The notes: generated from the letters alone by a model not told the origin. Shown: positions 7,677-25,217, counted from the first letter of the stretch. The stretch is DNA of 64,000 nt from an uncultured Candidatus Binatia bacterium (GCA_965242525.1 OZ251459.1:3648001-3712000); one strand, 5' to 3'. Numbers and translations: made by a program.

Positions 7677-7695
7677 GGCCGTAGTTCCTTTCCTT

Positions 7696-7797
7696 GGACT
7701 GCGCCGCCCAATCCTGGCTTGAGGCGTGGGAAAGCGCGTCCTTCGACTTCGCTTCGCTACGCTCAGGACGAACGGGGGCAATTGTTCAGGGGTTTCC
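7696..7797 (+). mobile_element. IS5-like MITE (family A)
   Basis: GGGAAAGCGCGTCCTTCGACTTCGCTTCGCTACGCTCAGGACGAACGGGGG at 7728-7778, followed by ATTGTTCAGGGGTTTCC. Confidence 0.7.
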
Positions 7798-11085: not shown

Positions 11086-11098
11086 GTCCTGCTTCAAC

Positions 11099-11329
11099 CT
11101 ATCCGCTGCTCGAAGTTGCAAGTTCCCGCAGCATCTTCTCACGGATTCCCAGGATCGAGATTCCGACGACTTCCCCGCGCGCCTCGTCGTATCGGACAAC
11201 GATACCCTCTCCAATATCGACGCCTACAGCGGGTTTCGGCGTATCGACAGAGATGTAGAGGACATCCGCCTCCCCATCGTAATCCCAATCCAGATTGCGC
11301 TTGCTTTCGAGGATTCTCAACGCTTCCAT
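11099..11329 (-). CDS. DUF2283 domain protein (putative antitoxin)
   Basis: WDYDGEADVLYIS...EGIVVRYD...EVVGISILG. Confidence 0.85.
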   Translation of the reverse strand: MEALRILESKRNLDWDYDGEADVLYISVDTPKPAVGVDIGEGIVVRYDEARGEVVGISILGIREKMLRELATSSSG

Positions 11330-11393
11330 AGGGTTCCGGTCGCATTCCTTTCACTCTTGCGTTGCCACAGCAAAGTTGGAAGATGCCTTTCGT

Positions 11394-12545
11394 TCATCCG
11401 AAGAAACTCAACTGCTGCACATCTATGGGATTCGTCCTGGGCAGGGCCACCTCTCCAACGGTTAGTCCAGATTCAAGCAAGGTGCGAACTTCCGCAATGT
11501 CGGCCGCCACCTTGACTTCTGTGCCTTCTTTCGCTGGAGTGAGCAAAAGGACTTCACGGCCATCGATGCCCTGTTCCATCAGGAGAGCTTCACTGTGTGT
11601 ACTGACGAGGATCTGGCGACGGCGATTGCGCTGCATTCGGGAGATGAGAGCCGCAAGCTGCGAAACAATGGCCGCGTTCAGCGAAAGCTCCGGTTCCTCC
11701 AGCAACAGCAGCGAATCGCCCTCCAGTAGAGACCACAGAAACCCGATCAGCCGAAGGGTGCCGTCGGAAAACTGACCTTCCCTCTGCCAACCTGCCTTCG
11801 GACGCCAATGAGAGTACAGCGCCTGCAGATGCGGACGCCCTGTAGCCGAATCCCGGGTGAATTGGAGTTGTTCGAACTGCAGCACAGCGATTTTCAGCGC
11901 CTTTTCGATCTTGGACAGACGGGATCGGCGGGTTTTCTCGCTCGTTTTCGCCAAACGCTCCAGAAGCCCCTGTCCGAAAGGGTCGTCTTCGACAATACGG
12001 CCTTGTATGGAATCGGCAAAGCGAAGGAGTTGAGGAACCACGTGCAGATAGGTGATCGACTGGAAGAACCGCACAACGTCCCGGAACTCCCCATTGGAGT
12101 TTATCTGTTCCAAGAAAGTCTGGCTGAGTCGGTTCGGGTCCCTTTCGTCATCTTGATTTGGCCTGTCAAGCAGTTGTCGGCCTTCCTTCCACACCCGTTC
12201 ATGGGTGAGGTACGGGAGGCGGGCCCCTCGTGTTTCGTGGCGAAAACCAAGAGCATAGCGCCACAACGGATCCTCGCCCGAGTTGTTGGCAAGGTGGACT
12301 TCCATTGCGATTTCCGGGCGTCGCGCCGTCAGGCTCCGAATCTTCGACACGCCCCCCCGATCCTTGACCGCCTTCTGAAGCCCTCCCCCCTCGGACTTGG
12401 CGATGTCCCGGAGGAAACGGAATACGTCCAGCAGGTTCGACTTGCCCGAAGCGTTGGCTCCAACAATGAACTGGCGCTTGCGGAGATCGACATCCACTGC
12501 TTGGAAATTGCGCCAGTTCTTGACCCATATTCGGCTGACGATCAT
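11394..12545 (-). CDS. AAA_21/ABC-type (SMC-head-like) ATPase
   Basis: IWVKNWRNF, GANASGKSN, FSDGTLR signature, LLLEEPE, VSTHS. Confidence 0.9.
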   Translation of the reverse strand: MIVSRIWVKNWRNFQAVDVDLRKRQFIVGANASGKSNLLDVFRFLRDIAKSEGGGLQKAVKDRGGVSKIRSLTARRPEIAMEVHLANNSGEDPLWRYALGFRHETRGARLPYLTHERVWKEGRQLLDRPNQDDERDPNRLSQTFLEQINSNGEFRDVVRFFQSITYLHVVPQLLRFADSIQGRIVEDDPFGQGLLERLAKTSEKTRRSRLSKIEKALKIAVLQFEQLQFTRDSATGRPHLQALYSHWRPKAGWQREGQFSDGTLRLIGFLWSLLEGDSLLLLEEPELSLNAAIVSQLAALISRMQRNRRRQILVSTHSEALLMEQGIDGREVLLLTPAKEGTEVKVAADIAEVRTLLESGLTVGEVALPRTNPIDVQQLSFFG

Positions 12546-12680
12546 GTCTGGTATCCTATCATTGGTACGACCAGGCCAAGGATTCGATCCTGACGGCGCC
12601 GTTATCCACCATGTCTATTTCCAGGTGATGCCCCTTGAGTAATCCCAGCGTGTGACGGGAAAATGTAGTGGGGTGGGCGG

Positions 12681-13610
12681 TCAAGGCCGCGCCGGTTCGC
12701 GGAAGACCTCCGTCTGATGCCATTTTACGAATTCGGGTTCGGGATCATGGCGGCGGTTTTGAGGGGTCCGGAGCGGTTTGTCGTGGAAGTCGAGGAACCA
12801 ATGGACCGGATAACTGCGGCCATTGACGTCGCTGGAAACGACGATCCGATAGCCTGAATCGCCCGCCTTCAGCCCCACGGCTCCCCGGTCGAAGGCCTTG
12901 TGGTGAAGCCCGCACAACGCCAATCCATTGGTGATTTCGTCCGGACCGCCAGCCGCATGCCACTTGATGTGAGCGGCTTCGAGACCGATCAGTTCGTTTC
13001 CGAGACGCACGTCGAAGTCGCAGATGGCGCAACGTTGCTCATATTCACGCAGGACTTCGACCCGGAAGGCCCGGTCACGCGGGCGAGCGGGACTGTCCCG
13101 CATTTCCCAAGAGTACGGAATACCGGTGACGTCACGGATCTCTTGATGCAGAGACTCGGGGAAGTGGCTGTCCAGGAGTCGCTGCGCGGCTTCGCGTGCG
13201 AGGTCCGGCCGTTGACGCAGAAGATCATACACCGGCTCAGGGAATCCGCCTTCCACGCCGCCCTTGTGCAGCTCCCGGACGAGAAGGTCTCCTCTGGCCG
13301 TGCGGGACAATTCCTCGCTGCTGGCAATCTCCCATAGCCCATCGGCGGGCAGACGACCGAACGGACGCTCCGGTTGCGGGCGTGTCCCCGGGCGCGTCTC
13401 GCGAGGCCGACCAAACCGTTGCAGCAGCTTCGTCAGCATCTCCTCGATCTCCCGATAGGGAGCGAAGCGTTCCCGTTCGTTGAGGAACCGACCGAGCGCC
13501 AGCAGGAGAAGCAGCGGCTTGTGCGGCGCGCGCTGCCCACGCTTCTTCCAGACGTTGATCCGCTCGATCCTCTCGAGGAAGTCGCTGCGCGTCGTGGGTA
13601 CAGGGGCCAT
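12681..13610 (-). CDS. HNH endonuclease with N-terminal sulfur-binding-domain (SBD)-like region (phosphorothioated-DNA restriction endonuclease family)
   Basis: RAPHKPLLLLLAL...PFGRL...DGLWE N-domain; CAICD...EAAHIKWH...NGLALCGLHHKAFDRG HNH. Confidence 0.8.
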   Translation of the reverse strand: MAPVPTTRSDFLERIERINVWKKRGQRAPHKPLLLLLALGRFLNERERFAPYREIEEMLTKLLQRFGRPRETRPGTRPQPERPFGRLPADGLWEIASSEELSRTARGDLLVRELHKGGVEGGFPEPVYDLLRQRPDLAREAAQRLLDSHFPESLHQEIRDVTGIPYSWEMRDSPARPRDRAFRVEVLREYEQRCAICDFDVRLGNELIGLEAAHIKWHAAGGPDEITNGLALCGLHHKAFDRGAVGLKAGDSGYRIVVSSDVNGRSYPVHWFLDFHDKPLRTPQNRRHDPEPEFVKWHQTEVFREPARP

Positions 13611-13668
13611 GAGCTGGTCTTGGAGCGCCTTTCACTGACCAAGGCGCACCGCGCCGCTCTCGAGGGCG

Positions 13669-14391
13669 TCAACGACCGGCAACGCCATTCCCGAGACTCT
13701 CCGAGACGTGGGTTCGTAGCCGGGGCTCGATGTGTTCCTTGCCGACACCCTGCATGGAGGCGTGGAAACGCTCGTCGCCGACAAGCCTGAAGAACCTGGA
13801 CCCGAGACGACCGGTCGCGCCGTAGAGGCCCAACCGTTCGATGCCGGATGCCAGGATCGAAGCCCTGGCTGCCTGCGTGAGCCTGCCAAGTTCCTCGACA
13901 TTCTCCTCGGCTACCGAGCCAAGGAAAACGTAACGTTTTCGGATTATCGGACGCATGCCCAGGATTTCGTCTATGCACGCTTCCACAGATCGCCCCGATC
14001 GTTCCCGGAGCTGTACGACTTGCTGAACTTCGCTGCTGTTGAGTCCGTGCGAGAGGATGGCCCGAGCGACGACGCGTTGTTCTTCGGCGTCTCGAACCCT
14101 CGCTAACTCTACAGCGGACGTGAAGCCAATAAAATGCTTTCCGGCGCCCCAACCGACTAGCCGCTGAAGGTCGTCGGGTAAGTCGAGAATGCGCAACAGA
14201 CGGCGGATGTGTCCAGTCCCGTTGAGGTGAATGGCCTTAGCGCAATCTTGCAGGGAAACACCTTCCTCACGAGCCTTACGAATAAGCGAGCCTACCGCTA
14301 TCGGTGATAGCGGCCGGCCTTTCTTGTGCGTCCCGTAACCAACGGACATTCGCAGATTCCCAAGCTCCAGAGCGTTCAACCCGGCGAGCAT
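13669..14391 (-). CDS. Hypothetical protein with ParB/KorB-like helix-turn-helix
   Basis: LSPIAVG...GVSLQDCAKAIHL...HIRRLLRILDLPDDLQRLV...IGFTSAVELAR resembles the ParB HTH; start chosen at MLAGLN. Confidence 0.6.
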   Translation of the reverse strand: MLAGLNALELGNLRMSVGYGTHKKGRPLSPIAVGSLIRKAREEGVSLQDCAKAIHLNGTGHIRRLLRILDLPDDLQRLVGWGAGKHFIGFTSAVELARVRDAEEQRVVARAILSHGLNSSEVQQVVQLRERSGRSVEACIDEILGMRPIIRKRYVFLGSVAEENVEELGRLTQAARASILASGIERLGLYGATGRLGSRFFRLVGDERFHASMQGVGKEHIEPRLRTHVSESLGNGVAGR

Positions 14392-14455
14392 TCGTTCTAC
14401 TTTCCAAGGAAACACAAGATTTCCGAGACGAGATACACGTGGGAAGCAACCTTCG

Positions 14456-15652
14456 TCATGCCGCGACTCCGGTCTCCTCCGGTTCTTCGACCCCGGAGAA
14501 ACTCCGTTCGAGCGCCTGCCGTGCATCCTCGCGGATTTCGTCCCGCCACCAGACGTCTTCAATGGAGTCGATTTCCGCGGGCAGGATCAACGATTCTCCA
14601 ATCCGCCGTTCCAAAGTGCGGAGTCTTTCGAGTATCTCGCGCCGTACCGCCAAGGTGAAGGGGCCGAACACGAGGGACCCGTCGTCCCTTTGCTTCGGGT
14701 TCCCGTCTCTCCGAACCGGCAGGCGGTTGGCGTTGTCTTCCCGCAGTGCGATCAGCCACTCCCGGAAGTCGAACAGGGCCTCCATCTTCTCGGCTTCGGA
14801 GTGCCCGGAGTCGATCAGGCCGCGCAGGCTGCGGTCCTTCTTCACCACCGTGCAGGTCCAGCACCCGAAGCGGGGCGAAGTGCTGCCGCACGAAGGCGCC
14901 TGCTCCTTCGTCATCACCAGTGGGCATTCTCCGCCGCCCGCATTGCGGTAGAGCGTGATGAGGCGGCGGTGGGTCCCGCCCCACGGGGGTCTGCGCTGCA
15001 TGAGCGTCATCCAGACGTCATCGTCGTCCAGATCCGCGAGCGGAGCGAACATCCGGCAGCCGTCCACCGAACCGTGCGGGTTCATCCGATCCGCGGCCAC
15101 CTTGCGCCGGTCCATGGTCCGCTGCCGGTTCTGGGATTCGGCGCGCCGCGTGCCCACGAGGAGAACGGAGTGCTTGGTATCTCGCGTGATCCGTTCCAGG
15201 AGCTTGGTCGTGGGCAGGATCTTCATCCTGTCCGTGCACCACCGGAAGTTCCTCGTGGGCGGGATGTAGCCGCGTCCGATGACACAGACCCAGAAGGTCT
15301 GGTCGATGCAGGGTTCGGTGACGTGCGTCTCAATGGGAAGCTCTCCCTTTTCCGCGGCCTTGTCGATCATCTTCAGCGAGTCCCTGAGATGCCGGATGAC
15401 CAGGGGCGACTCCACCAAGGTGTCGTTCCCGACGACGTGCACTGGACGACGCTTTCGCTCTTCGGCGGGCAACTCCGCGACGGTCTCCCAGACCAACTGA
15501 AGCAGCAGGGTGGAGTCCTTCCCGCCGGAGTAGGCGACGACCCACGGGTGGCGGTGCCGCTTGCCGTACTCCTTCCGAAGCACGCGCCGGACGGCTTCGA
15601 GGCGACCCGGCAAGGTCGCGATGGCGTTGCTCGAACCTGCGGATGCGGTCAT
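14456..15652 (-). CDS. dndC: DNA phosphorothioation sulfurtransferase DndC
   Basis: PWVVAYSGGKDS, DTLVESP, FWVCVIGRGY, FRWCTDRMKI, LYRNAGGGECP, RFGCWTCTVV. Confidence 0.93.
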   Translation of the reverse strand: MTASAGSSNAIATLPGRLEAVRRVLRKEYGKRHRHPWVVAYSGGKDSTLLLQLVWETVAELPAEERKRRPVHVVGNDTLVESPLVIRHLRDSLKMIDKAAEKGELPIETHVTEPCIDQTFWVCVIGRGYIPPTRNFRWCTDRMKILPTTKLLERITRDTKHSVLLVGTRRAESQNRQRTMDRRKVAADRMNPHGSVDGCRMFAPLADLDDDDVWMTLMQRRPPWGGTHRRLITLYRNAGGGECPLVMTKEQAPSCGSTSPRFGCWTCTVVKKDRSLRGLIDSGHSEAEKMEALFDFREWLIALREDNANRLPVRRDGNPKQRDDGSLVFGPFTLAVRREILERLRTLERRIGESLILPAEIDSIEDVWWRDEIREDARQALERSFSGVEEPEETGVAA

Positions 15653-16878
15653 CGTCCGATCCTCCTTAGGGCCGTCACCGTTTCCCGGACCGACCGTCCC
15701 GCGCGGTCGATCTCCCTGGCCGTCGTGAAGCGGCCAAAGCTGAACCGCACCGAGGACAGGGCCCGGTCCGTGTCGTAGCCGAGGGCGAGCAGCACGTGCG
15801 ACGGTTCGATGTCGGCCGAGGTGCAGGCGGAGCCCGACGAAACGGCGACGACGCCGAGGGCAACCATCAGCGCTTCCGCTTCGACGCCGGCAAAGGAGAC
15901 GCTGAGGATCCCGGGAACACGGTGCTGTGCGTTACCGTTGATTTCGACCTCCTCGACCCGGTCCAGGTGGGCGCGGAACCGGCGGTCCAGCGCTCGGACG
16001 TGCTTCGCGTCGGTCGTGCGGCGCTGCCGCACGAGGCGGGCTGCGTGGCCCATGCCCGCGATCTGGTGCGTGGGAAGCGTGCCCGAGCGCAGCCCGAACT
16101 CCTGCCCGCCCCCGTGAACTTGGGGAACCAACTCGGCGCGGAGGCGCCCGCGGACACGGAGCGCGCCGACCCCCTTCGGGCCGTACATCTTGTGCCCGCT
16201 GATAGAGATCATATCGGCAGCCGCGAGGGTTTCCATAGGGAGCCGCGCCGCACCCTGTACCGCGTCCACGTGGAGCAACGCCCCGTGCTGGTGGACGAGG
16301 GGCTCCAGGGCCGCAATGTCCGTGACGGTCCCGGTCTCGTTGTTCACGTGCATCAACGACACCAGGATGGTGCCCGGCCGCAACGCTTTCGAGAGGTTTT
16401 CCGGGGTGATCCTCCCGGTATCGTCAGGCTTGACACGGGACGCAGCGAACCCCTGCGTCTCCAGCCAGGCGGTCGAGTCCAGGACGGCCCGGTGTTCCAG
16501 CGCGGACGTGACTACGTGGTCGCCCCGGTCCCGGCGGGCGAGCGCGGCGCCCTTCAGGGCCAGGTTGATGGCTTCCGTCGCGCCGGAAGTCCAGACGACC
16601 TCCTCGGGTTGCGAGGACAGCAGCGCCGCGACCTCCCCCCGGGCGCTCTCGACCGCTTCCGACGCCGCATGGCCGAAGGCATGGGTCACCGACGCGGGGT
16701 TCCCGAAAGCCCCGTCCACCGTGAGGAAATCGCTCATGGTGCGGGCCACCGCAGGGTCCACGGGCGTGGTCGCCGCGTAATCGAGATAGATGGCGTCCCG
16801 GTCCGCAGGCTCCGCGGCCGGACCGGAAACGGCACAGGATGTTGATGAGTCGGCCTGCTGGAGAGGCATGTGGGTCAC
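15649..16878 (-). CDS. dndA: Cysteine desulfurase DndA/IscS
   Basis: YLDYAATTP, SGHKMYGPKG (PLP Lys), SSGSACTS (catalytic Cys); ATGA overlap with dndC. Confidence 0.88.
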   Translation of the reverse strand: MTHMPLQQADSSTSCAVSGPAAEPADRDAIYLDYAATTPVDPAVARTMSDFLTVDGAFGNPASVTHAFGHAASEAVESARGEVAALLSSQPEEVVWTSGATEAINLALKGAALARRDRGDHVVTSALEHRAVLDSTAWLETQGFAASRVKPDDTGRITPENLSKALRPGTILVSLMHVNNETGTVTDIAALEPLVHQHGALLHVDAVQGAARLPMETLAAADMISISGHKMYGPKGVGALRVRGRLRAELVPQVHGGGQEFGLRSGTLPTHQIAGMGHAARLVRQRRTTDAKHVRALDRRFRAHLDRVEEVEINGNAQHRVPGILSVSFAGVEAEALMVALGVVAVSSGSACTSADIEPSHVLLALGYDTDRALSSVRFSFGRFTTAREIDRAGRSVRETVTALRRIGR

Positions 16879-16909
16879 CGGGGTCTCCCTCGGGAGGCGG
16901 CCTGAGACA

Positions 16910-16918
16910 ATTGTACCA
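16910..16918 (-). promoter_or_regulatory. Extended -10 element upstream of dndA
   Basis: TGGTACAAT (TGn-TACAAT) on minus strand, ~30 nt upstream of the GTG start. Confidence 0.45.
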
Positions 16919-16920
16919 CC

Positions 16921-17152
16921 CTAGCACGGTCCGGGCCACCCGCGTCAACCGGCCCCCGGTAGCGCCCCATTCCCTGTGGACCGACGCTGCCGGAACGGCG
17001 TTGCTTGAAAACGGATCGGTTTTCGTTCAGGGTCCAACCGTGGGAGTTTGCCGGGAACGTCGCCTGCGCCGCGTGGGGCGGCGCAGGCGCGGCGGCTTCG
17101 TTGGGACGTTTCTCGTCCGCGGCATCACCGAGCCTGGAAACCTGCTCCCGTC
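16921..17152 (+). pseudogene. Internally deleted duplicate of the promoter and gene of the DUF4143 ATPase (18557-19251)
   Basis: Translates VGVCRERRLRRV/GRRRRGGFVGTFLVRGITEPGNLLPS versus MEVRRERHLRRV...SRRWRDSFVRTFLTRDLPELGNLVPS; upstream DNA is also similar. Confidence 0.8.
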
Positions 17153-17164
17153 ATGGAGGGTCCC

Positions 17165-17659
17165 ATGTACACAAGGGCTTCGAAGATCGCCCTCGTCTGG
17201 GCGGTTGCGTTCTTCTCCACGCTGGTGGTGTGCAACAACGTCACCGATTACGACTCCAACTACCAGTTCGTCGTGCACGTGCTCAAGATGGATACGACCT
17301 TCCCCGACAACCGGGGGATGTGGCGGGCCCTGGATTCCCCCTTCGTCCACCACGCGCTGTATGGCCTCATCATCCTGGTGGAGGCGGTGGTCGCGGTCCT
17401 GTGCTGGCTGGGAGGCTGGCGTCTCTTCCGCTCCGTCCGTGACCCCGCGGATTTCAACCGGGCCAAGGGCATCGCCATCCTCGGTCTGACCCTGGGGATC
17501 CTCCTGTGGTTCTCCGGGTTCATCACCATCGGCGGGGAATGGTTCCTGATGTGGCAATCGGACGTATGGAACGGACAGCAGGCCGCCTTCCGCCTGGTGG
17601 TGGTCCTGGGCCTCACGCTCCTGTACCTCGTGCAACCCGACCACGAGAACCACGCCTGA
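17165..17659 (+). CDS. DUF2165 family membrane protein
   Basis: NNVTDYDSNYQFVVHVLKMDTTF, GGEWFLMWQS..WNGQQAAFR; GGAGG SD. Confidence 0.9.
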   Translation: MYTRASKIALVWAVAFFSTLVVCNNVTDYDSNYQFVVHVLKMDTTFPDNRGMWRALDSPFVHHALYGLIILVEAVVAVLCWLGGWRLFRSVRDPADFNRAKGIAILGLTLGILLWFSGFITIGGEWFLMWQSDVWNGQQAAFRLVVVLGLTLLYLVQPDHENHA

Positions 17660-17681
17660 CCGTCGAGGCAGTTGCCGGAAG

Positions 17682-17838
17682 GCGTCCTTCGACTTTGCTT
17701 CGCTACGCTCAGGATGAACGGGGGGACTTCGCTTCGCTACGCTCAGGACGAACGGAGGGATTTCACTTCGCCATGCTCGGGACGAACGGGGGACTTCGCT
17801 TTGCCATGCTCAGGACGAACGGGGATAATTGTTCAGAG
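17682..17838 (+). repeat. MITE family A with four tandem ~34-bp copies of the REP core
   Basis: Head-to-tail ACTTCRCTTYGCYAYGCTCRGGAYGAACGG units ending in ATAATTGTTCAGAG. Confidence 0.8.
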
Positions 17839-18201
17839 CTTTTTCAGTCGCACCGCGGGCAGCTTCTTCAGTTGCTGGTTGAGCGGATCGACCTGGATAC
17901 CGAGGGACTCCAGCGCCGTTACTCCGAGCAGCGGCTCGGTGTCGATGTCCCCGAAAAGGACCGTTCCCCCGACCATCTCGCCCATGAGTTCGATTCGCAC
18001 CACCGCGACGTCCATCACGACTTCGCTGCCGTCCGCCAACAGATACGTCCGCCGTGCTTCGGGTTGAACGCCGATGGCGGCCAGATGCTGCCGCGGGACC
18101 AGGCTGTCGGTGGCCCCCGTATCGACCAGGAAACGCCCCTCCCAGCGCTTGGCTCGATCTGCCGGATTGCTGATGGTTACGTTGGCGTTGACCACACCCA
18201 T
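17833..18201 (-). CDS. Clan AA aspartic protease (AF_0612-like)
   Basis: FLVDTGAT, EPLLGVTALESLG; GGAGG SD. Confidence 0.9.
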   Translation of the reverse strand: MGVVNANVTISNPADRAKRWEGRFLVDTGATDSLVPRQHLAAIGVQPEARRTYLLADGSEVVMDVAVVRIELMGEMVGGTVLFGDIDTEPLLGVTALESLGIQVDPLNQQLKKLPAVRLKKL

Positions 18202-18217
18202 GTTCGGCCTCCCTTGA

Positions 18218-18328
18218 GGAACGTCTGTTCCATTCCGGCTTGAACTCCCTCTCTCCTGTGGGAAAGCGCGTCCTTCGACTTCGCTTCGCTACGCTCAGGA
18301 CGAACGGGGACAATTGTTCAGAGTTTCC
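18218..18328 (+). mobile_element. IS5-like MITE (family A1)
   Basis: Ends GGAACGTCTG...TTGTTCAGAGTTTCC; flanks TTGA/TTCA; REP core inside. Confidence 0.75.
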
Positions 18329-18415
18329 TTCAGACGGATCCTCCCTTCGGAACCGCACCCACGACAGGCCCCGGCCCGTGTCGTAACCGAGGTAAGCCAT
18401 AGGCAACTGTACTAG

Positions 18416-18556
18416 GCAACCTCTGAACAATCGAGACATCCGGGATGGATTCCCGATTCCCTCACCCTGACGCCCCTATTCCCGTTCGTCCTGAGCGTAG
18501 CGTAGCGAAGTCGAAGGACGCTCTCATGCTCTCTGTCCCGATTGTTTAGAGGTTCC
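18416..18556 (-). mobile_element. IS5-like MITE (family A2) with CTAG target duplication
   Basis: TIRs GCAACCTCTGAACAATCG / CGATTGTTTAGAGGTTCC; CTAG at 18412-18415 and 18557-18560. Confidence 0.85.
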
Positions 18557-18691: not shown

Positions 18692-19852
18692 ATGGAAGTT
18701 CGCCGGGAACGTCACCTGCGCCGCGTGAGCCTGTTGTTGCGGGAGTTTCCGGTGGTGGCGCTCCTCGGAGCGAGGCAGGTGGGGAAATCGACCCTCGCCC
18801 GGCAACTCGTGGCGTCGCGCCGCGGGCCCGCCACATGGTTCGACCTGGAGAACCCGGCCGACCTCGCCCGCCTGGAGGACCCCGGCCTGGAGTTGCGGCC
18901 GTTGCGGGGACTCGTGGTCCTCGACGAAATCCACCGGCTCCCCGGCGTGTTCCCGCTCCTGCGGGTCCTGGCGGACCGGCCCCGGACGCCGGCCCGCTTC
19001 CTCGTGTTGGGCAGCGCCTCTCCCGACCTCCTGAACCAGACATCGGAGACCCTCGCCGGGCGCGTGGCCTTCCACGAGCTCGACGGCCTCGGGTTGCACG
19101 AGGTCGGCGACCTGGAACGGCTCTGGTTGCGCGGCGGCTTTCCGTTGTCCTATCTCGCCCGGTCGGCGCCCGCGAGCCGGCGCTGGCGCGACAGCTTCGT
19201 TCGGACGTTCCTCACCCGCGACCTCCCCGAGCTGGGGAACCTGGTCCCGTCCACGACCTTGCGCCGCTTCTGGACGATGCTCGCCCACTGGCATGGCCAG
19301 TTGTGGAACGGCGCCGAATTCGGCCGCGCCTTCGGCGTTTCCCACACGACCGTAAGGCGCTACCTCGACCTCCTGTCGTCGGTCTTCGTGGTGCGCCAGT
19401 TGCAGCCTTGGCACGAGAACCTCGGCAAGCGGCAGGTGCGCTCCCCGAAGGTCTATATCGGCGACTCCGGCATCCTCCACGCGTTGCTGGGCCTGACCAC
19501 TCGCGAGGAAGTGGTTTCCCATCCCAAGGTAGGCGCATCCTGGGAGGGTTTCGTGATCCAGCAGGTGGTCCATCTGCTCGCCGCGGACAACGACCAGTGT
19601 TTCCACTGGAAGACGCATTCGGGAGCGGAACTCGACCTGCTGGTAGTGGCGGGCAACCGACGTTACGGCTTCGAGGTCAAGCGTACGGAGGCCCCGCGGT
19701 TGACGGCTTCCATGCACTCGGCCTTCGAGACCCTGGGACTCGATTCCCTGGACGTCGTGCACGCCGGGACCGAAGCCTACGCGCTGGCCCCCCGCATCCG
19801 GGCCGTGCCCGCCGCAGGGCTCGCCGCGAGGCTGCGTTCCCTGCGCCGGTAA
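18692..19852 (+). CDS. AAA_14 ATPase with DUF4143 and C-terminal PD-(D/E)xK-like region
   Basis: GARQVGKST, VVLDEIH, LGSAS, RGGFP, SPKVYIGDSG, AELDLL...FEVK. Confidence 0.92.
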   Translation: MEVRRERHLRRVSLLLREFPVVALLGARQVGKSTLARQLVASRRGPATWFDLENPADLARLEDPGLELRPLRGLVVLDEIHRLPGVFPLLRVLADRPRTPARFLVLGSASPDLLNQTSETLAGRVAFHELDGLGLHEVGDLERLWLRGGFPLSYLARSAPASRRWRDSFVRTFLTRDLPELGNLVPSTTLRRFWTMLAHWHGQLWNGAEFGRAFGVSHTTVRRYLDLLSSVFVVRQLQPWHENLGKRQVRSPKVYIGDSGILHALLGLTTREEVVSHPKVGASWEGFVIQQVVHLLAADNDQCFHWKTHSGAELDLLVVAGNRRYGFEVKRTEAPRLTASMHSAFETLGLDSLDVVHAGTEAYALAPRIRAVPAAGLAARLRSLRR

Positions 19853-19874
19853 CCACGACCGACGACCATCCTCG

Positions 19875-20054
19875 GGAACGTCTGATCAATTCCGGCCCGA
19901 ACTCCCTCTCCCTGTGGGAAAACGCGTCCTTCGACTTCGCTTCGCTACGCTCAGGACGAACGGGGGAGGACTTCACTTTGCCACGCTCAGGACGAACGGG
20001 GGGACTTCACTTTGCCGTGCTCAGGACGAACGGGGACAATCGTTCAGAGTTTCC
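19875..20054 (+). mobile_element. IS5-like MITE (family A1) with three tandem REP units
   Basis: GGAACGTCTGATCAAT...ATCGTTCAGAGTTTCC. Confidence 0.78.
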
Positions 20055-20055
20055 T

Positions 20056-21804
20056 TCAGAACCTGAGGCTGGCCTTCACGCCGACGTTGCCTTTACTTTT
20101 GACGTTGCCGGTCCGCAGCTTGCCGAAGACCTCCACCGCGCCGAGGCCGCGGCCGAAGCTGCGCTTCACTTGGCTTTCGAGTACGGCATGGCGGCCGGAG
20201 GCATTGCCCGGGACTCCGATCTTCTGCTCGCCGTAGATCTTGAAACTGAAATCCAGGCCGGGCAAGGCGGACGGCATCTTCAGGCGTGCGCCCATACGCA
20301 CCTTCGAAGGCCTGTGGGAAACCCTCAACTCGCTGAACGGCGTCAACCGGCTGCGTCCGTCCATGAACTTCACTTTGTAACCTGACCGCGCCTTCAGGGT
20401 CATGCGGGAGCCGTTCGGTCGAGCCTCCGCGGGCCAGGCCCCCTTCCACAGCGCCTCCTTGTCGAGGGACGCATTGCCCCAGGAGGGGGCGAGCGAGAGG
20501 TAGAGGCCCCGGCCGCGAGCGCCCGGGTCGAACACCGCAGTGACGCTTGCCCTCCACTCCCGCAGAGCCGAGGCCCGGTGCGCCGCCAGGAAGCGCCCGC
20601 GCGCCTTCAGGTCGATGCCCAGACTCCGGTCGGCGTAGTCCGCGGCCCCGCCCACCTCCAGGCCCGCGCCCGACTCCAGGTCGCCGCCGTCCAGGCGCCC
20701 GCCGAGTTCGAGGCTGCCCGAGAGCTTCCTCCTCCCGGCGAACCTTGCGCCCTTGCGGACCTCCAGGGCCAGACGCATCCGCCGGTAGTCGGCCTCGGTC
20801 TTCGGCAACAGGCCTTCCCGTTCCTCCGACCGGACCCGCACCAGGAAGCCGTCGGTCTTGAGCGCCCAATCGACGCCCGCGGCGTGCGCCAACACCCTGC
20901 GTCCGCCCGCCGCGGCCATCCACAGGTCCATGTCCGTGTCCCCGCCTTCGCCGAACGTGGCCTTGCCCCAGCCGTAGCCCAGCGTGGCCCACATCCCGAG
21001 TCCCGCCGCGGGCGACCAGTGCACGTAGGGATGCACGCTGGTGAGCGTAGCGTCCCCCTTGCCCCCCACCTCCCCGGCGCGGTAGTCCGTCTTGCCCTCG
21101 CTATAGCCCGCGGCGACGCCTGCGAGCAGGTCCCCACGCGTGCGGAAGTCGATGCCCGTCTGGCCGGACCAGGCTTTTCCGTCCATGGAGAAGTCCTCTT
21201 CCGGTCGGTCCTCGAAACCGGATGCGGCTCCGCGGCCCCACAGGGTCCAGGCCGCTCCGGCGCCGGCCGCGGTCCCGTCCTTCCCGTCGAAGGGGAGCCG
21301 GAAGGAGGTCCCGGACAGTGCGCCGACGGGGTTGCGGCGTCCGTTGCCGCCTGCACCGGCGCCGAGCACCCGCTCCAGGCGCCGCGCCAGCGCCGCAGGG
21401 CGGCCGCCCGAACCGAGCCGTTTCCCGGCCAGCTTCGCATGCAGGCCCCCGGGCGACAGGGCCGCCGCGGCGCGGTCGCCGATGGCGTCCGCCACGTCCG
21501 TCGCCACCGAACCCCCGAATGCTCCAAGCACGTACTCCTCCCCCGGCGTCGCCGCGTAGCCGGGACAGGAAGGATCGGGGTCGTCGGGGCCGCAGTGGTC
21601 CGGTATCGATCCGGTCACCCCCCAACCGAGGGCTGTCGCCTCGGTCTCTCCGGCCGCGGCGATCCGGGGAGTCGGACCGGGTTGCGCGGCCGCATTTCCG
21701 GGCAACGAACCCGGGAAGAGGAACAGAAGGAGCAGCGTCCCCGCGGCGCACGCCTCCGAAACGCGCATCATGGCGTCGTACTTCTCGGGCAAGCTCGGAA
21801 CCAT
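20056..21804 (-). CDS. Autotransporter-like outer-membrane beta-barrel protein
   Basis: Hydrophobic N-terminal signal-like stretch, WTLWGRG, amphipathic strands, terminal Phe (VKASLRF); TGATG overlap with the pgi stop. Confidence 0.75.
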   Translation of the reverse strand: MVPSLPEKYDAMMRVSEACAAGTLLLLFLFPGSLPGNAAAQPGPTPRIAAAGETEATALGWGVTGSIPDHCGPDDPDPSCPGYAATPGEEYVLGAFGGSVATDVADAIGDRAAAALSPGGLHAKLAGKRLGSGGRPAALARRLERVLGAGAGGNGRRNPVGALSGTSFRLPFDGKDGTAAGAGAAWTLWGRGAASGFEDRPEEDFSMDGKAWSGQTGIDFRTRGDLLAGVAAGYSEGKTDYRAGEVGGKGDATLTSVHPYVHWSPAAGLGMWATLGYGWGKATFGEGGDTDMDLWMAAAGGRRVLAHAAGVDWALKTDGFLVRVRSEEREGLLPKTEADYRRMRLALEVRKGARFAGRRKLSGSLELGGRLDGGDLESGAGLEVGGAADYADRSLGIDLKARGRFLAAHRASALREWRASVTAVFDPGARGRGLYLSLAPSWGNASLDKEALWKGAWPAEARPNGSRMTLKARSGYKVKFMDGRSRLTPFSELRVSHRPSKVRMGARLKMPSALPGLDFSFKIYGEQKIGVPGNASGRHAVLESQVKRSFGRGLGAVEVFGKLRTGNVKSKGNVGVKASLRF

Positions 21805-23408: not shown

Positions 23409-23454
23409 CTCGGTGGGACGACGAGCGGCGATGATGCCCCCCTCTCTCGGTTCA

Positions 23455-23563
23455 GGAATCTCCGGTCAGTTCCGGCTCGATGCGCCTCTGCCTGCGGGAA
23501 AGCGCGTCCTTCGACTTCGCTTCGCTACGCTCAGGACGAACGGGGTGATGGTTCAGGGTTTCC
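23455..23563 (+). mobile_element. IS5-like MITE (family A1) with TTCA duplication
   Basis: TTCA at 23451-23454 and 23564-23567; REP core at 23496-23545. Confidence 0.78.
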
Positions 23564-23567
23564 TTCA

Positions 23568-23740
23568 GGAACCGCTGAACCATCGAGACATCCAGGATGG
23601 ATCCCGATTTTCTCACCCTGATACCCCTATTCCCGTTCATCCTGAGCGTAGCGAAGCGAAGTCCCCCGTTCATCCTGAGCGTAGCGAAGCGGAGTCGAAG
23701 GACGCGCTCATGCCCCCTGTCCCGATTGTTCAGAGGTTCC
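23568..23740 (-). mobile_element. IS5-like MITE (family A2) with two REP units, abutting the previous MITE
   Basis: GGAACCGCTGAACCATCG...CGATTGTTCAGAGGTTCC; body similar to 18416-18556. Confidence 0.8.
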
Positions 23741-23750
23741 TTCGGTCGGT

Positions 23751-25217
23751 TCAGTCCGTGCGGTCCAGGGTCAGGGCGATGTCGCCCTTGGCCACGCGCA
23801 CGTGCCCCAAGTCGTCCCTCTTGACCAATTCCTCCACCAGCGACACCACCGGCGGACGGGTGCTCACGTAGGCCCGGGGCGGCGCGGCCGCGCGCATTTC
23901 CGCGATCTCGGCCTCGCTCAGGAGCCAGCGCAGCAACAGCTCTTCGTCCGAGACCCCGTCGCCCCCCAGCCTCGCGCGCATTTCGGAGAGGGACGGCTCC
24001 ACCGGCTCCTGCGCGGCCAGTTCCCGGGCCCGGGGGCGGTCGAGGATCTTGTCCTTCACGTCCGGGTCCATGAGCCGGGCCCCTTCCTCTCCGGCCCGGC
24101 CCAGGGCGTAGCGGATGACCTGGTCGGTGACCTCCTTGTAGCGCTCCCCCACGATGACGTTCAGCGCCGCCTGGCTGCCCACGAACTGGGACAGCGGCGT
24201 CACCATGATGGGATAGCCGAACTCGGCCCGCACGCGGATGGTCTCTTCCAGCGCCTGTGGGAAACGGTCCCCCAGCCGCACCTTGTCGAGCTGGTGCTGG
24301 AGGTTGGAGCGCATGCCGCCGGGCACCTGGTGCTGGTACTGGGCGTAGTCGTACTCCACCGGCTTGCCCACGGGAAAGCCCTCGCGTTTGGCGATGGCGG
24401 TGAAATGCGCGGCCACGGGCTCCAGCACGGACTCGTCCACGAGGGGGTTGTAGCCCAGGGCCCGGGCGTTGCGGGCGACGTTGAAGACCGAGGGGTTGGA
24501 GGAACCGTCCGCCAGCGGCGGCACCGCGGTGTTGACGCTGCGGATGCCCAGGTCCATGGCCTCCAGGCAGCACAGGGGGCCGAGGCCGGTGGTGCAGTGG
24601 GTGTGGAGCTCGATGGGGATGCCGTTGCAGTTATCGAACATGGCCGGCACCAGCGTGCGCATGCGCTCCGGCGTGAGCAGCCCTCCGGGGTCCTTGAGGC
24701 AGATGACCGGCACTTCCAGCGAGGCGGCCTCGCGCGTCTTCCGGGCGTAGTACTCATCGGTGTGCTTGGGCGACACCGAGTAGATCATGTTGATGATGGG
24801 CTTGATGCCGACTTCGCGCGACACCTCCGCCTTGCGCTTCCAGCCCGCGAAGTCGTTCCATTCCTCGGAGATGCGCGCCTCCCGGACGCCGTTGGCGGCC
24901 ATGCGCTCCATGAACAGGCGGTACATGGACAGGGGGTTGAACTCGAAGGTGTTGACGCGCCCGGCGATGACCCGGAGCGGCGTCACGGTGATGCGTCGGG
25001 CCACCAGCCGCACCCGCTCCCAGGGGTCTTCCTTGAGCTCCCGCACGCACTTCTTCAAGTGCGAGCCGGAGATGAGCTCCATGGCCTCGAAGCCCGCCCG
25101 GTCCATTTGCTCGGCCACGGAAAGCATCATGCCCGTGGTCATGTTCTCCGCCCACAGGCTCTGGTGCCCGTCGCGCAGGGTGGTGTCAACGAAGCGGATG
25201 TCCTTGTTCACGTTCAC
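23751..25217 (-). CDS. Pyruvate carboxylase subunit B / oxaloacetate decarboxylase alpha-like carboxyltransferase (no biotinyl domain)
   Basis: DTTLRDGHQSL, CLKDPGG, LHTHCT, HQVPGGM, GYPIMVTPLSQFVG. Confidence 0.9.
   Translation of the reverse strand: MNVNKDIRFVDTTLRDGHQSLWAENMTTGMMLSVAEQMDRAGFEAMELISGSHLKKCVRELKEDPWERVRLVARRITVTPLRVIAGRVNTFEFNPLSMYRLFMERMAANGVREARISEEWNDFAGWKRKAEVSREVGIKPIINMIYSVSPKHTDEYYARKTREAASLEVPVICLKDPGGLLTPERMRTLVPAMFDNCNGIPIELHTHCTTGLGPLCCLEAMDLGIRSVNTAVPPLADGSSNPSVFNVARNARALGYNPLVDESVLEPVAAHFTAIAKREGFPVGKPVEYDYAQYQHQVPGGMRSNLQHQLDKVRLGDRFPQALEETIRVRAEFGYPIMVTPLSQFVGSQAALNVIVGERYKEVTDQVIRYALGRAGEEGARLMDPDVKDKILDRPRARELAAQEPVEPSLSEMRARLGGDGVSDEELLLRWLLSEAEIAEMRAAAPPRAYVSTRPPVVSLVEELVKRDDLGHVRVAKGDIALTLDRTD

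Follow-up and report, generated by a model that had tools for sequence, protein, structure and literature searches.

A dndA-dndC pair without DndD or DndE in the probable remainder of a larger DNA-sulfur defence operon of an uncultured Candidatus Binatia bacterium

Five adjoining genes of an uncultured Candidatus Binatia bacterium, read earlier from the sequence alone as a possible new and compact DNA phosphorothioation (PT) system, are the subject of the present analysis. They lie in a stretch of 64,000 nucleotides (GCA_965242525.1 OZ251459.1:3648001-3712000), called here the window, and positions are counted from its first letter. The row occupies 11394-16878 on the minus strand and consists of dndA, dndC, a ParB-type helix-turn-helix (HTH) gene, a gene for a nuclease with a sulfur-binding domain (SBD) and an HNH domain, and an ABC ATPase gene. 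All five genes are present, co-oriented, where the sequence-only reading had placed them. The ATGA coupling that it described between dndA and dndC is real; the dndC start lies inside the dndA stop, and AAGGAGG stands upstream. The gaps between the downstream genes of the row are 64, 58 and 135 nt. The gene list given earlier was incomplete, as it had overlooked a DUF2283 gene (11099-11329) and a relic open reading frame (ORF) of 20 codons (14397-14459). The features of the locus are listed below, with E-values unless bits are stated.

15649..16878, minus strand: dndA, pyridoxal phosphate (PLP)-dependent cysteine desulfurase, 409 amino acids (aa); Pfam Aminotran_5 1.9e-76, PADLOC DndA 3.7e-138.
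14456..15652, minus strand: dndC, PP-loop sulfurtransferase, 398 aa; PADLOC DndC 4.5e-109, TIGR03183 337 bits (cut-off 290.4).
14397..14459, minus strand: relic mini-ORF, 20 codons, 5' end of GmrSD joined to 3' end of ParB_N; from blastn against the related locus L003, alignment and translations.
13669..14391, minus strand: orphan ParB/Noc-type HTH gene, 240 aa; weak HTH_ParB match (3.5e-4) and predicted fold.
13639..13668, minus strand: 5' relic of a metallo-beta-lactamase (MBL)/beta-CASP nuclease gene, about 30 nt; from homology to the start of the relatives' gene.
12681..13610, minus strand: SBD-HNH, predicted type IV restriction endonuclease, 309 aa, no SRA domain; NF045808, 5ZMM, HNH_2.
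11394..12545, minus strand: ABC (AAA_21) ATPase, 383 aa, HEC-01A family; AAA_21 5e-35, PADLOC PDLC04180 2.3e-154.
11099..11329, minus strand: DUF2283 gene, 76 aa, downstream of the ATPase; PF10049 2.8e-10, 40.6 bits (cut-off 23).
11086..12558, no strand assigned: ATPase and DUF2283 cassette, 1473 bp; 11085 and 12559 are joined in contigs of the runs X6 and X9.

DndA has the class-V aminotransferase fold, with the PLP lysine in SGHK at residue 227 and the cysteine in SGSAC at residue 348. It also matches the PADLOC SspA model (2.9e-141), and its score against the NCBIfam DndA model (403.5 bits) is under the equivalog cut-off of 480. IscS-like paralogues are encoded elsewhere in the genome (47% and 37% identity), and the dndA studied here is dedicated to the locus. 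DndC carries SGGKDS at residue 42 and eight Cys. It is the sole DndC of its own genome, which is 98.96% complete, and no related solved structure was found at E 0.01 or better. It is not of the SspD type, as it matches SspD at only 4.5e-6 versus 4.5e-109 for DndC. A promoter and terminator scan was uninformative, with three promoter-like sites (0.8 ± 0.8 expected) and five terminator-like sites (5.4 ± 2.4 expected).

Three loci of the same genus (L003, L004 and L019) hold an island between the same flanks as in the window, PGI at one end and genes for a GFO oxidoreductase and a Rieske protein at the other. L003 has the full seven genes, namely dndA, dndC, GmrSD, SNF2, ParB_N, HTH and MBL. L004 has dndA-dndC-GmrSD and a DndB-like gene, then a copy of the ATPase 84% identical to that of the window. 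L019 has dndA-dndC alone with a 32-codon relic of GmrSD. By blastn, 16971-14414 of the window corresponds to 8691-11236 of L003, and 14411-13639 to 15312-16084; the window has no equivalent of the 4075 bp of L003 in which GmrSD, SNF2 and ParB_N are encoded. At this joint, about the first 16 codons of GmrSD run into the last four codons and the stop of ParB_N. Homology to the beginning of the MBL gene continues for about 30 nt past the HTH stop and ends near 13639, which marks the second breakpoint. The relics at both joints thus indicate that two deletions removed GmrSD, SNF2, ParB_N and MBL. Run X6, a sponge metagenome of a different study, yielded a 4275-nt contig that matches 13431-17200 with about 97% identity. 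Since this independent contig spans the joint between dndC and the HTH gene, the joint is no assembly artefact. The deletion in L019 is an independent one, because its GmrSD gene breaks at a different place. In the window's own genome, no second copy of the ParB_N or DndB-like gene was found, and the homologues of GmrSD and SNF2 encoded elsewhere are only distant (27% and 37% identity). By these comparisons, the five genes appear to comprise the survivors of a larger DNA-sulfur defence operon, cut down by two deletions, and two unrelated defence genes at its side. The sequence-only reading had named decay and rearrangement of a defence island as its main competing explanation, and the relics at both deletion joints support it. 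A distant GmrSD-type gene, 27% identical to that of L003, lies outside the window at G000:C1:3759067-3760830, about 97 kb from dndC.

The larger operon could be followed among relatives. A scan of one genome per species gave 516 DndC relatives, of which the best 80 loci were kept and classified by tblastn (coverage of at least 60%) with the proteins of the window and of two close loci as queries. These loci come from metagenome-assembled genomes labelled Binatia, Acidobacteriota, Gemmatimonadota, Chloroflexota, Nitrospirota, Alpha- and Gammaproteobacteria, Bacteroidota, Latescibacterota, Spirochaetia and others. Their DndC proteins are 62-93% identical to that of the window, and such identity across many phyla points to lateral spread of this DndC lineage. 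The full set, in which dndC is followed by GmrSD, SNF2, ParB_N, the 240-aa HTH gene and the MBL-fold gene, was found in 40 of the 80 loci, and a partial version in three. GmrSD together with a DndB-like DGQHR protein was found in 23 loci, GmrSD only in five, the DndB-like gene only in three, the HTH gene only in one (L040), and none of these genes in five, two of them at contig ends. In 62 loci dndA adjoins dndC. The GmrSD gene (DUF262 + DUF1524) is intact in 71 loci, where it comes after dndC. An HTH protein is encoded in 42 loci, in 41 of them as part of the SNF2-ParB_N-HTH-MBL block; SBD-HNH is present in six, with varied position and strand, and the ATPase in one. According to the sequence-only reading, recurrence of the dndA-dndC-HTH-(SBD-HNH)-ATPase neighbourhood in unrelated genomes would speak for a system. 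This five-gene order was found in none of the 80 loci and in none of 60 relatives, and a DNA search of the 60 relatives found the HTH-HNH-ATPase stretch nowhere whole, only as separate pieces.

Among the extra genes of the relatives, the SNF2 core ATPase has about 455 aa and ParB_N 274 aa, and the MBL-fold gene is related to beta-CASP nucleases. The best solved relatives of the L003 GmrSD protein are DndI (9JFL, E 4.7e-7) and SspE. The PADLOC matches of the relatives' GmrSD are HEC-06, SspE and 'Orf5', which we take to be the old name of dndI.

The sequence-only reading had recognised no dndB, dndD or dndE in the window, and this absence extends to the rest of the genome. The best DndD match there is of 28 bits in the P-loop stretch (profile positions 2-48), and tblastn with the DndD of a Mesorhizobium plasmid gave no match at E 1e-5 or better. 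For DndE, no PF08870 match was found in the genome, although DndE is small and divergent and a very distant form could escape. No DndB was found in the genome either. Furthermore, five related complete genomes gave neither a DndD above the P-loop match nor a DndE. The Mesorhizobium plasmid, with annotated DndD and DndE, served as the positive control for the DndD and DndE searches. DndD scored 236 and 207 bits over its full length on it, and DndE 8.1e-10. The absence of DndD and DndE is credible because the same searches found both on the control plasmid. In tblastn of the 80 DndC loci, the control DndE had no match, the control DndD had one weak match (L057), and the second ABC ATPase of the control plasmid had a full-length match in two loci (L015 and L056). 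Among the 25 PADLOC families listed, of 47 matched by the 46 other ORFs of the window, there are no Dnd, Ssp or Pbe families. The DndD-DndE pair has been described as an obligate core, and its absence ascribed to poor assemblies (PMC10853773). The related genomes searched, several of which are single-chromosome assemblies, speak against this account for the present clade. Thus, a DndC lineage found across many phyla, with no DndD or DndE in the six genomes searched, runs against the obligate-core view.

The HTH protein has 419 homologues, none of them named. Most of the 120 listed are exactly 240 aa long, and the closest among those listed are P0001 and P0002 (92% and 88% identity). Given these lengths, the ATG at 14391 is most likely the start, and a TTG start, proposed earlier and giving 297 aa, is unlikely. 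The AlphaFold model of the protein has a pLDDT of 90.1. In Foldseek searches, its first ~130 residues could be laid over Noc, ParB and Spo0J DNA-binding domains with a root mean square deviation of 2.1-2.8 Å over 106-131 columns, at weak E-values (4e-3 to 1e-2). The C-terminal alpha/beta domain had no structural match. Two of the 44 conserved columns deviate in the window's protein (F65L and D177A). The HTH protein had no match in 72,556 plasmids, and a metagenome scan with it gave four loci only.

In 41 loci the HTH gene comes directly after ParB_N and before the MBL gene, and in L018 and L021 the whole SNF2-ParB_N-HTH-MBL block has been inverted or moved as a unit. In the metagenome locus L097, a 542-aa DndC, a 687-aa DndD-like ABC ATPase and a DndE (PF08870, 4.5e-24) are followed by this block, with dndA last. 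L096, also from a metagenome, has the same layout by tblastn. Since the block also stands beside canonical DndC-DndD-DndE, it is no stand-in for DndD/E, and SNF2, ParB_N and HTH as substitutes for these proteins were therefore rejected. The block is best read as a restriction-type add-on module, putatively made up of a translocase, a split ParB and a nuclease. As it accompanies two kinds of writer, the DndD/E-less clade would be without a dedicated writing ATPase, except for the NTPase domain of GmrSD. In L040, a gene for a 588-aa fusion of an S-adenosylmethionine (SAM) methyltransferase with HNH (L040:11243-13009) lies between dndC and the HTH gene.

The state of dndA and dndC was evaluated by conservation and by substitution rates. 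None of the 115 DndA columns that are at least 95% conserved (61 sequences) deviates in the window, and none of the 138 such DndC columns (79 sequences). The pairwise ratio of non-synonymous to synonymous substitution rates (dN/dS, omega) of dndA and dndC against L004, L003 and L019 is 0.14-0.21, compared with 0.13-0.31 for the flanking genes. On the window branch, polarised by parsimony, omega is about 0.24 for dndA and about 0.19 for dndC. Corresponding values on the L019 branch are 0.22 and 0.18, and dndC has 31 synonymous and 17 non-synonymous changes there. The flanking genes give 0.08-0.31. Judged from these comparisons, dndA and dndC appear intact and under purifying selection in both the window and L019. 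The values argue against a long neutral drift of the pair, most clearly in L019.

The SBD-HNH protein scores 312 bits (cut-off 180) against NCBIfam NF045808, 'phosphorothioated DNA-binding restriction endonuclease', over positions 3-284 of 284. Its residues 18-150 match the SBD of ScoMcrA (5ZMM, 2.2e-12); SprMcrA (7CCJ) is matched at 5e-9, and at the C-terminal end an HNH domain matches HNH_2 at 6.2e-10. The sulfur-cavity residues are in place, as H30, K31 and P83 align with H116, R117 and P165 of ScoMcrA, and the R117 position is reported to be Lys in most homologues (PMC6224610). An Arg stands at the position of ScoMcrA Y164, which is described as base-contacting and as varying with the sequence context (PMC6224610). 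Among 27 same-genus relatives, eight have a DndC, and an intact SBD-HNH homologue with 63-68% identity is present in six. Of these six genomes, four have no DndC match. Broken or fragmentary SBD-HNH genes were found in five further same-genus genomes (G014, G024, G015, G026 and G012). In G007, the full system is found together with an intact SBD-HNH gene about 255 kb from the dnd locus. An AAA_14-DUF4143 gene adjoins SBD-HNH in five of the six other same-genus loci (L099, L100, L101, L103 and L104), and a homologue of the ABC ATPase (~50% identity) lies near it in two of the six, where it is convergent. From these distributions, we regard SBD-HNH as an independent type IV nuclease, predicted to bind and cut phosphorothioated DNA.

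The window holds an AAA_14-DUF4143 ATPase gene of its own at 18692-19852 (plus strand), about 1.8 kb upstream of dndA. Near the SBD-HNH gene of the same-genus locus L104 lies another SAM methyltransferase-HNH fusion gene like that of L040, of 625 aa (L104:7786-9663). Internal stops were seen in three related loci, in the DndC of L053 and L075 and in the DndA of L032. Such stops and the broken copies in relatives indicate that both dnd genes and SBD-HNH turn over quickly.

The ATPase matches the HEC-01A model PDLC04180 with residues 1-380 over profile positions 1-379 of 382, and has its Walker A motif at residue 29 and Walker B at 279. Contigs of the runs X6 and X9, both sponge metagenomes, pass from 11085 straight into 12559. 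Since these contigs lack it, the 1473-bp unit of ATPase and DUF2283 genes is a presence/absence polymorphism; no direct repeats were found at its borders. A 112-nt fragment upstream of dndA in L003 (L003:8571-8682) is 79% identical to the ATPase gene of the window, which implies that the ATPase was once in that island too. A second AAA_21 ATPase paralogue, with 46% identity, lies at G000:C1:2002610-2003728. The true partner of the ATPase may be the DUF2283 gene rather than the HNH nuclease. None of the adjoining SBD-HNH, DUF2283 and GFO oxidoreductase proteins had a TOPRIM match, as would be expected of the HEC-01B partner. PtuB is not among the three PADLOC families matched by the HNH protein, and PtuA is not among the 25 ATPase matches listed of 105. 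A Septu-like or HEC-01-like pair of HNH protein and ATPase was rejected, as the cassette is missing in some strains and the ATPase is near SBD-HNH in only two of the six loci.

Putting these observations together, we think it probable that the locus is a mosaic, in which dndA-dndC are still useful alone after two deletions, SBD-HNH is independent, and the ATPase cassette is a separate insertion. In this proposal, dndA-dndC would be the pair that mobilises sulfur in a Dnd-type system operating in the absence of DndD and DndE. The usual forms of that system would be dndA-dndC-GmrSD(DndI-like)-SNF2-ParB_N-HTH-MBL nuclease and dndA-dndC-GmrSD-DndB-like. One deletion of about 4.1 kb would have taken GmrSD, SNF2 and ParB_N, and a second break the MBL nuclease, leaving the HTH gene stranded; the ABC ATPase and DUF2283 genes would be a separate insertable cassette. 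DndA would make a persulfide and load it onto DndC, which would use it with ATP. In intact relatives, GmrSD would be a PT-sensing nuclease that recognises the mark in the manner of DndI, and the SNF2 block a second, restriction-type effector. DndI is itself a DUF262 + DUF1524 protein that is toxic without PT, and both DndI and SspE are described as PT-sensing nucleases (PMC11662687). Because its relative DndI is toxic without PT, GmrSD could be lost before the writer and not after it. Loss of GmrSD with the writer kept is the order seen twice, in the window and in L019. After the deletions, dndA-dndC would still be useful alone, most likely for DNA thiolation in a sequence context that the adjacent SBD-HNH does not read. 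SBD-HNH would act alone on incoming PT-DNA, which is expected to be common where the system is widespread. Its coexistence with dndA-dndC could mean either that it reads another sequence context than that of the host writer or that the writer no longer marks DNA.

Several observations weigh against this proposal. In six of the 80 other loci, DndC has an SBD-HNH homologue within 10 kb, in five of them near a border of the system; this proximity is above chance for a rare gene and suggests some link between the two. L040 keeps the HTH gene beside dndA-dndC without the rest of the block, and the HTH gene may thus have a role of its own. Furthermore, dndA and dndC are without decay, and the term 'remnant' fits the operon, not these two genes. 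The omega values, being pairwise or parsimony-based, are crude; no date for the deletion follows from them, and a recent one would give the same values.

The alternative that comes next accepts the same mosaic, with dndA-dndC as inert leftovers of a recent deletion that have had no time to decay, and with SBD-HNH tolerated because the host DNA is not thiolated. Established PT writers other than Tdp are reported to need an ATPase and a DNA-recognising partner (PMC12707154, PMC10853773), and a mutated dnd cluster is one published explanation for an SBD-HNH enzyme beside dnd genes (PMC7461809). The two changed columns of the HTH protein would also agree with such leftovers. However, omega stands near 0.2 for the window branch as well as for the long branch of L019, in which dndA-dndC are alone, and there is no deviation at the 253 conserved columns of the pair. 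The deleted form is also established in more than one sample, and in G007 the full system and an intact SBD-HNH occur together. We therefore regard inert leftovers as unlikely.

A functional pair of writer and reader would explain the neighbourhood differently: dndA-dndC would mark the cell's own or invading DNA, the adjacent SBD-HNH would act on it, and the ATPase would be optional. The SBD-HNH homologues within 10 kb of DndC in six of the other loci, and the intact sulfur-cavity residues, would fit such a pair. In addition, one survey places wHTH(SBD)+SAD+HNH genes within the Dnd locus in 698 taxa and proposes that they are alternative restriction components (PMC10853773). In contrast, the HNH gene differs in position and strand from locus to locus, four of the six intact same-genus copies are in genomes with no DndC match, and the form described in Dnd loci has a SAD/SRA domain, which is missing from the window's protein. 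Moreover, the SBD-HNH enzymes tested so far cleave PT-DNA, and their restriction of dnd plasmids reaches up to 1000-fold (PMC6224610, PMC7461809). Such a pair appears distinctly improbable to us. The statement of the sequence-only reading that SBD-HNH enzymes are normally incompatible with an active Dnd writer is disputed in print. It agrees with the report that dnd genes adjoin fewer than 3.6% of SBD-HNH enzymes (PMC7461809); the 698 taxa of the other survey run counter to it.

A compact five-gene PT system with the HTH protein and the ABC ATPase in place of DndE and DndD, as first proposed, is very hard to maintain: the genes are co-oriented and closely spaced and DndD and DndE are truly absent, but the order does not recur in the 80 loci or the 60 relatives, the ATPase is missing in some strains and accompanies DndC in only one of the 80 loci, there is a deletion scar on either side of the HTH gene, and the HTH gene is usually one of a block that also co-occurs with real DndD and DndE. 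The parts of the row are known families, and the claim of a new compact system is to be dropped.

The mosaic proposed here shares features with several known systems. As in DndABCDE, the window's DndA is dedicated and coupled to a DndC that passes the curated cut-off; unlike in DndABCDE, there is no DndD, DndE or DndB in the genome and no DndD or DndE in the five related genomes. The closest DndC of a cultured organism, 49% identical and 355 aa long, is encoded on a Mesorhizobium plasmid in a normal dndA-C-D-E cluster. A short DndC as the mark of DndD/E independence was rejected, since this 355-aa protein stands beside DndD and DndE. The relatives resemble IscS-DndBCDE-DndI and SspABCD-SspE in the DUF262+DUF1524 gene after dndC (71 of 80 loci). 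Unlike in the DndI and SspE systems, the GmrSD of the relatives is paired with a writer without DndD/E or SspB/C, and the window keeps only the relic of about 16 codons. The nuclease resembles ScoMcrA, SprMcrA and EcoWI in the order of SBD and HNH and in the cavity His, Lys and Pro, and it lacks an SRA domain like SprMcrA and EcoWI and unlike ScoMcrA. It differs from all three in sitting beside an intact dndA-dndC. The ATPase matches HEC-01A over its full length, whereas HEC-01 is made up of an ABC ATPase and a TOPRIM protein, the latter without counterpart here; in one reported test, HEC-01 gave no defence (bioRxiv 10.1101/2024.01.29.577857). A further likeness is to orphan methyltransferases left after loss of restriction in restriction-modification systems, as effectors were lost and modification genes kept twice independently. 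In contrast to these, the mark here would be backbone sulfur, and the activity of the writer is inferred.

The literature offers partial parallels. A published list of putative PT systems includes dndC neighbourhoods of the 'DUF262' kind (PMC12914056), and in sponge Thaumarchaeota dndA, a DUF262/DUF1524 'dndB-like' gene and dndC have been noted together (PMC6790972). Searches of the full-text literature turned up neither the seven-gene architecture nor an SNF2-ParB_N-HTH-MBL block together with dnd genes; the supplementary tables of PMC12914056 and PMC10853773 may hold this architecture.

A precedent for PT synthesis without DndD/E is TdpABC of thermophiles, with its single-gene writer TdpC (PMC12914056). 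TdpABC is likened to the present clade by description only. Tentatively, the DndA-DndC of this clade could be a self-sufficient PT writer without DndD/E or a dedicated ATPase, a mesophilic counterpart of TdpC, a possibility that we hold to be real and on present evidence somewhat doubtful. If so, GmrSD, the SNF2-ParB_N-HTH-MBL block, the DndB-like gene and SBD-HNH would be interchangeable reader or effector cassettes, and the block would represent a new restriction module, linked to PT and in the service of canonical DndCDE as well. On this view, natural 'writer-only' strains would be what the window and L019 represent, and the retained selection on dndA-dndC would thereby be explained. The block travels with this lineage and with canonical DndCDE and is in any case a candidate restriction module. 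Two independent natural deletions that keep dndA-dndC under apparent purifying selection provide a ready-made test of the pair as a PT writer. The locus is thus of moderate interest, as a pointer to a Dnd variant without DndD/E and to its add-on module.

Outside the row, the 46 other ORFs of the window include PADLOC matches to PD-Lambda-2_B (3.1e-144), PDC-S01 (2.1e-86), SoFic (2.2e-44), Mokosh MkoA (2.2e-45) and MkoC (5.7e-51), type II methyltransferases and mad3/mad8-like ATPases. A GC-rich element, about 45 nt long, is repeated in both orientations, often in tandem, and occurs also in L004. In the window it lies at 7684-7777, 17630-17860, 18216-18340, 18451-18556, 19872-20066, 23452-23579 and 23602-23752, that is, in intergenic stretches on the island's dndA side and at one site past the Rieske gene. 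The element resembles repeats of the repetitive extragenic palindrome or miniature inverted-repeat transposable element (REP/MITE) type, and it may promote the rearrangements found here.

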